DNA from: a virus
Taxonomy: Duplodnaviria; Heunggongvirae; Uroviricota; Caudoviricetes
DNA length: 13,917 bases
Virus record (IMG/VR): IMGVR_UViG_2751185972_000005
Direction: 5' to 3' (one strand)
Shown here one piece after another: positions 8,635 through 10,140 of this stretch (its first letter is position 1; each line of letters opens with the position of its first letter). The translations under genes and the position numbers were made by a program. A model generated the notes under the pieces. That model had not been told where the DNA came from. It did no database searches and saw only the letters and a list, made by a program, of their open reading frames with translations.

Positions 8635-10140
8635 TCATGGCATGGCCATGAGCATTTTCACGTCCGCATCACCGTCTGCTGACGTCTGTGACACGCCACC
8701 CCGCACCGCTGCCGGTGAATGATTCGCCATGAAATGTTCAAACAGGGCGGTTGTGGATGCAGAGACCGGTTCGGCCTTACCTGATCCCGCAGCCAGCACA
8801 GCCCGGGCGTTCTCCACGGTCATTCCCGGGCAGGCCGCCAGTTTTTCAGCCTGCGCTTCTGCCCCTTTTGCCTCATCCAGGGCCATGATCTGATCACGAA
8901 GTGAGGGCCCGGCATCCGCCAGTGGTGCAGCCGCCAGGATCGGGCGGGCTTTTTCCACCGTCATCTCCGGCATCGCCGCCAGCGTTGCCGCCAGTTGTTC
9001 ACGACCGTTCGCTTCTTCACACGCCATAATGCGATCGGCTTCACTCTGCGCGGATGCCACCGGCTGCTGCGGTGCCGCCGCGGCCAGAATCGCCCGGGCC
9101 TGTTCAACGCTCATGCCCTGTTGCCCTGCCAGCATCGTGGCAAGCTGTTCACGTCCTTTCGCTTCCTGGCATGTCAGGATCCCCATCACTCGCTGGTTCT
9201 CCTGCACGGCGGCTTCCGTTGCAGTTAATTGCGGCATAGTGCCTCCTCTGACATTACTGTTCAGCGCCGTGGCCATCACACTGATGGCATCCGACGCATT
9301 GATTAATTCATCCGCCAGCCCGGCCTCAATGCCGGACTGACCTTCAAAAACAGCGGCCTCTGTTCCCGTGACTGCATCAACAGACAGACCGGTAAACATC
9401 GCCACTTTTTCGGCAAACATCCGGCGCGCCGCATCAATCCGCTGCTGCATGTCCTGGCGAACCTCTGCCGGCAACGCTTCAAACTGATTGCCATCCACCT
9501 TGTGCGCCCCTGAGTAAATCAGCGTGATATCCACACCGGCCTGCGCCAGATGACCGGCATAGCTGACATGGCTCATCATCACGCCAATGGAACCGATACG
9601 GGATGTCTGGGTAACCAGCCGTCGGGAGCAGGCCGACGCCAGCAGCATGGCCGCAGAACAGGCCGTGTCATTACACAGTGCCCAAACCGGCTTCTGCTGC
9701 CGGAGGCGGTAAATCATGTCAGCGCAGTCAAACGCGCCGGCGGCCTGCCCGCCCGGACTGTCAATGTCCAGCAGTATGCCCCGCACCTGGCTATCTGCCA
9801 TTGCCTGCTGAAGACAGGCGACAATGCCGTCATAGCCAGTCATTCCGGAAAATGGCCGCATCCCCCCCAGCCGGTGCACCAGCGTGCCGGTCACCGGCAG
9901 TACCGCAATACCGTTCACCACCCGGTAAACACGGGCCGGTCGTTTACCTCCGGCCATGTACTCGTCCGTTTCAGCCAGCATCCCGGGAGCATCAAGCTGT
10001 ACCTGCTGTTGCGGTACCGAAAGACTTGCTGCCCCCATCTCGCGCCCCAGCGCGCAAAAGAAAACCCGCGCATAGGCGGGCTCCAGAAGCAGCGGTTCAT
10101 TGAATGCTGCTGCAATAATGTGTGAAAGATTACGTCTCAC
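8635..10140 (-). CDS. C: Head maturation protease / scaffold C (lambda gpC-like, S49 ClpP-like peptidase); Nu3-like scaffold probably nested in-frame in the 3' part
   Basis: Track ORF 8635..10140, 501 aa. N-terminal two thirds (AAFNEPLLLEPAYARVFFCALGREMG...NGIAVLPVTGTLVHR...GMTGYDGIVACLQQA...GILLDIDSPGG...AGAFDCADMIYRLRQQKPVWALCNDTACSAAMLLASACSRRLVTQTSRIGSIGVMMSHVSYAG...ITLIYSGAHKVDGN...) matches lambda gpC as recalled. It is about 60 aa longer than lambda C (about 439 aa), with the extra length in a repeated C-terminal region. The Nu3 start cannot be fixed from sequence alone. Confidence 0.9.
   Translation of the reverse strand: MRRNLSHIIAAAFNEPLLLEPAYARVFFCALGREMGAASLSVPQQQVQLDAPGMLAETDEYMAGGKRPARVYRVVNGIAVLPVTGTLVHRLGGMRPFSGMTGYDGIVACLQQAMADSQVRGILLDIDSPGGQAAGAFDCADMIYRLRQQKPVWALCNDTACSAAMLLASACSRRLVTQTSRIGSIGVMMSHVSYAGHLAQAGVDITLIYSGAHKVDGNQFEALPAEVRQDMQQRIDAARRMFAEKVAMFTGLSVDAVTGTEAAVFEGQSGIEAGLADELINASDAISVMATALNSNVRGGTMPQLTATEAAVQENQRVMGILTCQEAKGREQLATMLAGQQGMSVEQARAILAAAAPQQPVASAQSEADRIMACEEANGREQLAATLAAMPEMTVEKARPILAAAPLADAGPSLRDQIMALDEAKGAEAQAEKLAACPGMTVENARAVLAAGSGKAEPVSASTTALFEHFMANHSPAAVRGGVSQTSADGDADVKMLMAMP
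8785..9192 (-). repeat. Three degenerate tandem in-frame copies of a roughly 40-aa motif within the 3' part of C (period about 140-155 bp)
   Basis: In the C protein, residues about 317-357 (RVMGILTCQEAKGREQLATMLAGQQGMSVEQARAILAAAAP), 369-406 (DRIMACEEANGREQLAATLAAMPEMTVEKARPILAAAP) and 416-452 (DQIMALDEAKGAEAQAEKLAACPGMTVENARAVLAAG) are mutually similar. The DNA shows corresponding degenerate repeats. Confidence 0.75.

Follow-up and report, generated by a model that had tools for sequence, protein, structure and literature searches.

The DNA analysed here, a stretch of 13,917 nucleotides (nt) from the Caudoviricetes record IMGVR_UViG_2751185972_000005 (the window, taken at its full length), carries on its minus strand a phage head gene whose product bears three related units of roughly 40 amino acids (aa) near its C-terminus. 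An earlier note, made from the letters of the sequence alone, had called this gene the C gene of a lambda-like phage and had placed a triplicated helical motif at 8785-9192, which corresponds to aa 317-452 of the encoded protein. The gene and its internal features are the following.

8635 to 10140, minus strand: head maturation protease/scaffold fusion gene, a lambda C homolog of the phage 21 gene 5 type, 501 aa with a GTG start (from the list of open reading frames and its translation).
9262 to 9705, minus strand: S49 peptidase domain, aa 146-293 (Pfam PF01343 Peptidase_S49, E 1.5e-34).
9242 to 9248, minus strand: Shine-Dalgarno sequence GAGGAGG of the nested scaffold gene, read in the sequence and annotated as the ribosome-binding site in both phage 21 records.
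8635 to 9237, minus strand: nested scaffold gene, 200 aa, with a putative ATG start at 9237-9235 (Met302), from sequence signals and the phage 21 annotation.
9067 to 9201, minus strand: Tri1 unit, aa 314-358, ENQRVMGILTCQEAKGREQLATMLAGQQGMSVEQARAILAAAAPQ (from alignment; 'Tri1 box' of GenBank M81255).
8920 to 9042, minus strand: Tri2 unit, aa 367-407, EADRIMACEEANGREQLAATLAAMPEMTVEKARPILAAAPL (from alignment; 'Tri box' of M81255).
8779 to 8904, minus strand: Tri3 unit, aa 413-454, SLRDQIMALDEAKGAEAQAEKLAACPGMTVENARAVLAAGSG (from alignment; 'Tri3 box' of M81255).
8638 to 8778, minus strand: C-terminal tail, aa 455-501, with a predicted amphipathic helix ASTTALFEHFMAN (aa 461-473) and a hydrophobic end, DADVKMLMAMP.

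It is near certain that this is the phage-21-type head gene bearing the Tri1, Tri2 and Tri3 boxes. The window protein is 97.2% identical to coliphage 21 gp5 across all 501 aa and is matched end to end by PHROG 53 ('head maturation protease'). Its S49 domain has the conserved serine, with the putative catalytic Ser162 (codon 9655-9657) aligned to lambda Ser166, and the gene occupies the position between the portal gene and the decoration and capsid genes. The name gpC given in the earlier note is thus justified by the S49 domain, the PHROG 53 match and the place in the head module, for a gene that is read from the minus strand.

The three units share the reading frame of the gene, begin 53 and 46 aa apart and are joined by short linkers rich in Pro, Ala and Gln. 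Smith-Waterman alignment between the copies gave scores of 105, 86 and 97, when compared with ∼25 ± 4.9 for shuffled sequences (z = 16.2, 12.6 and 15.0), and none of 2000 composition-preserving shuffles reached the observed scores. The self-alignment thus upholds the claim of three tandem, in-frame and diverged copies in the C-terminal third. Alignment with MAFFT yielded the consensus ExDRIMACxEAKGREQLAxxLAAxPGMTVExARAILAAAP, with 16 invariant columns, which essentially reproduces the consensus proposed from the sequence alone. The net charges of Tri1, Tri2 and Tri3 are 0, -3 and -2, respectively, and in the E. coli (Escherichia coli) lineage Tri3 reads GAE at a position where GRE is otherwise near-invariant, so that the Arg is lost.

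At the nucleotide level the copies are 53-66% identical in a codon-based alignment. Tandem Repeats Finder and a DNA repeat finder, run over 8500-10200, returned short chance matches only and no such array, because copies that share so few nucleotides escape these tools; the repeat is visible at the protein level. The same degree of divergence excludes an assembly artefact, as the earlier note had argued, and a recent duplication as well.

The triplication is on record. GenBank M81255 (1993, 'Bacteriophage 21 head gene operon') has three repeat_region features, 'Tri1 box', 'Tri box' and 'Tri3 box', inside gene 6, each with the note 'function unknown; putative', and these features translate to aa 324-358, 371-407 and 418-455 of the 97%-identical protein. 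Phage 21 (M81255; OL657228) has the same gene of 501 aa, the same nested gene for a putative 200-aa scaffold, the same ribosome-binding site and the same three repeats. It differs from the window by point substitutions only in this gene (11 residues in the 200-aa scaffold part, by hand count from the two translations), and the adjoining capsid and tape-measure genes of the window are frameshifted. The triplication is thus a known property, recorded since 1993, and a widespread and ordinary one among phage 21-type prophages, since the Tri boxes were annotated at that date and the gene occurs in about one third of complete E. coli genomes.

The units fall within a putative nested gene, the analogue of phage 21 gene 6 and lambda Nu3. 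Five bases separate GAGGAGG from its ATG, and the 'GGTMP' context of this start is kept in the homologs from Gifsy-1 and Trabulsiella; in the phage 21 annotation these internal start signals carry the label 'putative'. In the 200-aa product, 12 residues would precede the three units and their linkers, and the 47-aa tail would close the chain. The overlap with the Nu3 scaffold proposed in the earlier note is therefore present, although it takes the form of a nested in-frame gene and not of a different reading frame. In OL657228, two 'CII binding site' pattern matches (ttgynnnnnnttgy, 3409-3422 and 3643-3656) lie on the opposite strand in gene 6, one near the internal start and one within Tri2; they are probably no more than chance fits to the pattern.

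In NC_001416, lambda C is 439 aa long and holds one copy of the motif, ENSRIMGILNCEEAHGREEQARVLAETPGMTVKTARRILAAAPQ, which among the window units is closest to Tri1 (z = 21). The S49 protease domains of the two proteins are 54% identical. The prediction that the window C would be ∼60 aa longer than lambda C is borne out (501 vs. 439 aa, a difference of 62 aa), and the extra length is an expansion relative to lambda, which has one copy and not three. The increase is a net value: two extra units and their linkers contribute ∼100 aa, from which the 36-aa Ser/Thr/Ala-rich linker of lambda (a gap of 36 columns in the alignment) is subtracted. Lambda gpC/Nu3 resembles the window system in its head-module position, its S49 domain with an aligned catalytic Ser, its nested in-frame scaffold gene, its unit and its related tail, but it has one unit instead of three and carries the Ser/Thr/Ala-rich linker ahead of that unit.

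The start of lambda Nu3 was considered in the same alignment. A strong Shine-Dalgarno sequence and ATG, caGGAGGgcgaATG, at 5342 (Met309 of C) align with the internal start of the window and with the start of phage 21 gene 6. The RefSeq nu3 start in NC_001416 is at 5132 (Met239), has a weak Shine-Dalgarno sequence and gives 201 aa. Because strong signals are present at the homologous Met309, the RefSeq start is doubtful, and the annotation may be 70 codons too long, as judged from sequence signals; a lambda Nu3 that begins at Met309 would have 131 aa, when compared with 200 aa in the window. An equal scaffold length in phage 21 (200 aa) and lambda (201 aa) was entertained and dropped in view of these signals. 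Nu3 is said to have been defined classically, in the work of Shaw and Murialdo from 1980, as the C-terminal third of C, which would fit a start at Met309. The lambda gpNu3 studied by Medina and co-workers in 2011 was reportedly partly disordered, partly helical and weakly dimeric, and drove gpE polymerisation. Lambda Nu3, an internal scaffold, forms dimers and has E, C and B as interaction partners, and the protease removes it (PMC3224144).

The earlier note had suggested that the number of repeats could influence scaffold length or capsid assembly; in the phage-21-type lineage this number is near-fixed at three. Three units were found in 78 of 80 close IMG/VR relatives; one of the two others is cut by a contig end and the other has two units. 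The 561-nt repeat region is present in 1,870 of 5,426 complete E. coli genomes, with at least 80% of it covered in 1,865. Three units also occur in Gifsy-1, in a Trabulsiella prophage, in Escherichia albertii, in Shigella and in the diverged proteins P0097 and P0098. When homologs were first sought with the 200-aa scaffold, most matches were fragments at contig ends and of little use for copy counts, and a scan of genome contigs gave 6 loci only.

Gifsy-1 STM2605 of Salmonella (63.5% identity over the whole protein) and the homolog from a Trabulsiella guamensis prophage (80% identity in the protease domain) share with the window gene the order of their three units and the context of the internal start, and their copies are orthologous by position; in both, the third unit keeps GRE, in contrast to GAE in the E. 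coli lineage. When the units of the window protein, Gifsy-1, Trabulsiella, P0097 and P0098 were compared, they clustered by position. Copy 1, for example, shares 71-79% identity with copy 1 of the other lineages, against 49-56% with copies 2 and 3 of the protein it belongs to. Since the units group by position and not by genome, the triplication predates the split of these five lineages.

Each unit is under purifying selection. The ratio of nonsynonymous to synonymous substitution rates (dN/dS) was 0.06-0.19 over all Tri codons and 0.06-0.14 over the protease domain, and the tail, at 0.30-0.55, was the least constrained part. Taken singly, the Tri units gave 0.03-0.29, below the tail values.

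Length variants occur in nature. The two-unit relative mentioned above (L026; IMGVR_UViG_2531839474_000007, ∼2501-3856) encodes 451 aa and has an in-register deletion of 150 nt that joins Tri1 to Tri2 at their common GREQLA stretch, which is consistent with unequal recombination between the repeats. P0101 (382 aa) has lost a longer stretch, which begins where the protease domain ends and reaches into Tri2. In NZ_CM137001.1 (E. coli HSP60) the Tri region was matched in two pieces at 100% identity (504 nt vs. 561 nt), and this genome may carry another in-frame length variant, ∼57 nt shorter.

The motif extends well beyond this lineage. A three-unit profile was searched against 1.84 billion representative proteins (cut-off E <= 0.001), and 453 clusters carry the motif. 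Copies were counted with an iterated profile in the 142 newly retrieved proteins among the 150 best hits: 131 have one unit, and 11 have two or three. The multi-copy matches with a shown sequence are relatives of phage 21/Gifsy-1 or fragments of them, except P0118 and P0227, which are independent duplications of the unit. In nearly all one-copy relatives the single unit lies 40-65 aa from the C-terminus, and across the family its conservation is far stronger than that of the tail behind it. Three short proteins (P0118, P0159 and P0098; 100-230 aa) were considered as stand-alone scaffolds, but they begin within ∼50 nt of a contig end and are best read as fragments of longer genes.

Among 97 members scanned, an S49 domain was found in 51 and a ClpP-type protease in 15. 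A decoration gene of the HDPD type follows the motif gene in all 5 informative genomic contexts examined, and where the locus extends further a lambda-family portal and a Phage_cap_E capsid gene are present, also for one ClpP-type member. Since the unit is joined to proteases of either type, it travels with the lambda-type shell and portal and not with one protease family.

Structure prediction gave two pictures of the unit. In the single-sequence AlphaFold model of the 200-aa protein (mean predicted local distance difference test, pLDDT, of 63.6), each unit comprises a long helix and, after a turn, a shorter one; the helix passes straight through the conserved Gly, and low-confidence linkers part the units. 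With the 97-sequence alignment, Tri3 was modelled at pLDDT 84-91 with three helices (LRDQIM, EAQAEKLAA and VENARAVLAAG); the breaks between them fall at the conserved E-A-x-G turn and in a P-G-M-T loop that shows a T-x-x-E helix-capping pattern. Each Tri unit is therefore predicted to be a compact three-helix mini-domain that folds on its own. Of the tail, one helix (aa 461-473) was predicted with moderate confidence, and the remainder was modelled as disordered.

Known families gave no home for the unit. Foldseek against the PDB and BFVD gave no significant match (none at E < 1), and a PDB sequence search with the single protein gave nothing relevant (lac repressor, E 0.24). A profile of 46 units matched designed helical repeat proteins only in the PDB, which share an idealised loop and helix-cap pattern. 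In Pfam the sole match over the motif was DUF7178 (E 0.062; 13.6 bits vs. a cut-off of 27), and NCBIfam had none. Uncurated PHROG clusters alone cover the motif, as phrog_8399 ('head scaffolding protein') does in three stretches. The units could not be placed with the helix-turn-helix coat-binding domain of P22 gp8, for which there was neither a PDB sequence hit nor a Foldseek hit at E < 5. The C-terminal domain of P22 gp8 is basic. The likeness to gp8 is one of analogy and not of homology, namely a small helical module in a mostly flexible scaffold that chaperones capsid assembly; the Tri units differ in being internal and neutral to acidic (net charge 0 to -3), and neither sequence nor fold matches.

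Two neighbours flank the protease/scaffold gene directly.

10130 to 11722, minus strand: lambda-family portal gene, upstream, overlapping the start of the protease/scaffold gene.
8251 to 8598, minus strand: head decoration gene, downstream.

The major capsid gene (7166-8193, minus strand) also lies downstream on the same strand, and the genes follow the W-B-C-D-E order of lambda. The capsid gene is split into open reading frames 7609..8193 (194 aa) and 7166..7612 (148 aa) by a frameshift at ∼7672, where one base is missing when compared with a 99.8%-identical intact gene of 342 aa in E. coli GZ04-0086 and with phage 21. From the sequence, this may reflect either a decayed prophage or a sequencing error. 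Relative to a 99.3%-identical prophage in NZ_CP042336, the window has a compensating indel pair (361 and 370), a C-run at 732 that is one C longer, and missing bases at 1624 and 2187; the last two break the tape-measure gene into open reading frames 1247..1507, 1486..2010 and 2142..3818. Together with the capsid frameshift, these indels suggest a defective prophage or an error-prone assembly. Most of the 99.3%-identical E. coli prophages match window positions 1-13541 only and differ over the last 376 bases (13542-13917, the terminase region), and two other genomes span the whole window with insertions such as an IS3 family transposase.

On balance we favour the view that the Tri-box gene makes a protease and a nested scaffold, and that the Tri modules are folded interaction elements. 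One minus-strand gene would yield two proteins with a common C-terminus, the S49 protease (gp5) and, from the internal ATG, the 200-aa scaffold (gp6). Each module would comprise a short helix, the E-A-x-G-R-E turn, a second helix, the P-G-M-T loop with its T-x-x-E cap and a third helix. We infer that these modules act as the interaction elements of an otherwise flexible scaffold, because they are its only confidently folded element and its best conserved part, and that they would bind one another and/or attach to the lambda-type shell from within or to the portal. Such docking would chaperone polymerisation of the capsid protein and bring the protease into the procapsid, and the protease would later degrade the scaffold; since the protease shares the Tri units, they may also target it into the procapsid. 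Lambda would make do with one module and a disordered linker, and phage 21 and Gifsy-1 would have, with three, a longer, more structured and potentially trivalent scaffold.

Several points weigh against this view. The docking element for the capsid lies at the extreme C-terminus in P22, in 80alpha and in the HK97 protease. Here the tail holds that position, so that the tail may bind the capsid and the Tri units may merely dimerise or space. Furthermore, (i) Tri3 has GAE for GRE, and the three copies may therefore not be equivalent; (ii) a two-copy variant, L026, exists in nature, and three copies may therefore not be strictly required; (iii) the predicted models have no significant match in the PDB or BFVD; (iv) the capsid and tape-measure genes of the window are frameshifted, and the gene may therefore not function in this prophage; and (v) the link between the units and a partner is one that we infer, and the GenBank feature itself reads 'function unknown; putative'.

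The alternatives differ in how far they depart from a folded protein module. That the repeat is not a protein-level signal at all, but stems from chance similarity in an Ala-rich region, from faulty assembly or from a feature of the DNA, an RNA or an antisense gene, can be set aside with near certainty. The region is G+C-rich with an Ala content of 20-27%, and antisense open reading frames of 61-103 aa are present, but shuffles of the same composition never matched the observed scores, the three units recur in 1,870 genomes of E. coli as well as in diverged prophages of Salmonella and Trabulsiella, and the protein is conserved while synonymous sites are saturated. The antisense and RNA readings were rejected, since the antisense frames had no family match and Rfam gave no match. 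A protein-level alternative, which we regard as unlikely, is that the Tri units serve chiefly as spacers or to set length, that the C-terminal tail alone docks to the capsid and that the extra units replace the lambda linker. Known scaffolds usually dock via their extreme C-terminus. The phage-21-type protein indeed has two extra units instead of the 36-aa Ser/Thr/Ala-rich linker, and the two-copy variant occurs naturally. A spacer, however, needs no conserved sequence, yet each unit keeps the E-A-x-G-R-E and T-V-E-x-A-x-x-x-L-A-A signature, has a dN/dS below that of the tail, and belongs to a motif that is far better conserved than the tail across the family.

The Tri units might instead bind the portal and not the shell, forming the historical 'preconnector' (portal plus gpC) and recruiting the portal to the procapsid, which we think rather improbable. 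A 12-mer portal cannot be the main target of a scaffold whose copies number in the hundreds. The portal protein B does need Nu3 for its incorporation, and C-B and Nu3-B interactions are listed, but yeast two-hybrid analysis gave Nu3-E and not Nu3-B (PMC3224144). An older phage 21 annotation names gp5 and gp6 'head-tail preconnector' proteins, and the upstream gene, where it is inside the locus, is always a lambda-family portal, even before a ClpP-type protease; the same contexts, however, always carry Phage_cap_E and HDPD, so that co-occurrence cannot separate portal from capsid. Very improbable, in our judgement, is a role of the units as recognition or cleavage modules of the maturation protease, by which more copies would give faster or fuller scaffold removal. 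The protease whose gene contains the scaffold gene also degrades the scaffold (PMC3224144), and the motif is always fused to a head protease; but that protease belongs to two families, S49 and ClpP-type, and a unit predicted to be compact and folded would be a poor substrate.

As a discovery, the triplication matters little, as it has been in GenBank since 1993 and is found in one third of complete E. coli genomes. Taking the Tri modules as folded interaction elements, a broader proposal can be put forward tentatively: the Tri unit, with its ∼40 aa, may be a three-helix domain that folds autonomously and belongs to no curated family, and it may be the interaction module that characterises every head scaffold of the lambda type, the type with a lambda-family portal, an HDPD decoration protein and a Phage_cap_E capsid, whatever the protease family. 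The difference between one and three copies would then amount to a natural experiment in scaffold valency. If this were true, the phage 21/Gifsy-1 lineage would have given up a disordered linker and acquired two further binding modules in its place, and the gain of modules would change the number of capsid subunits or scaffold partners that each chain engages. What remains of value is the Tri module itself, which has neither a curated family nor a solved structure and yet shows the highest conservation within the scaffolds of lambda-type head modules. The natural variants with one, two and three copies offer a simple genetic handle on scaffold valency and length in procapsid assembly of the lambda system.

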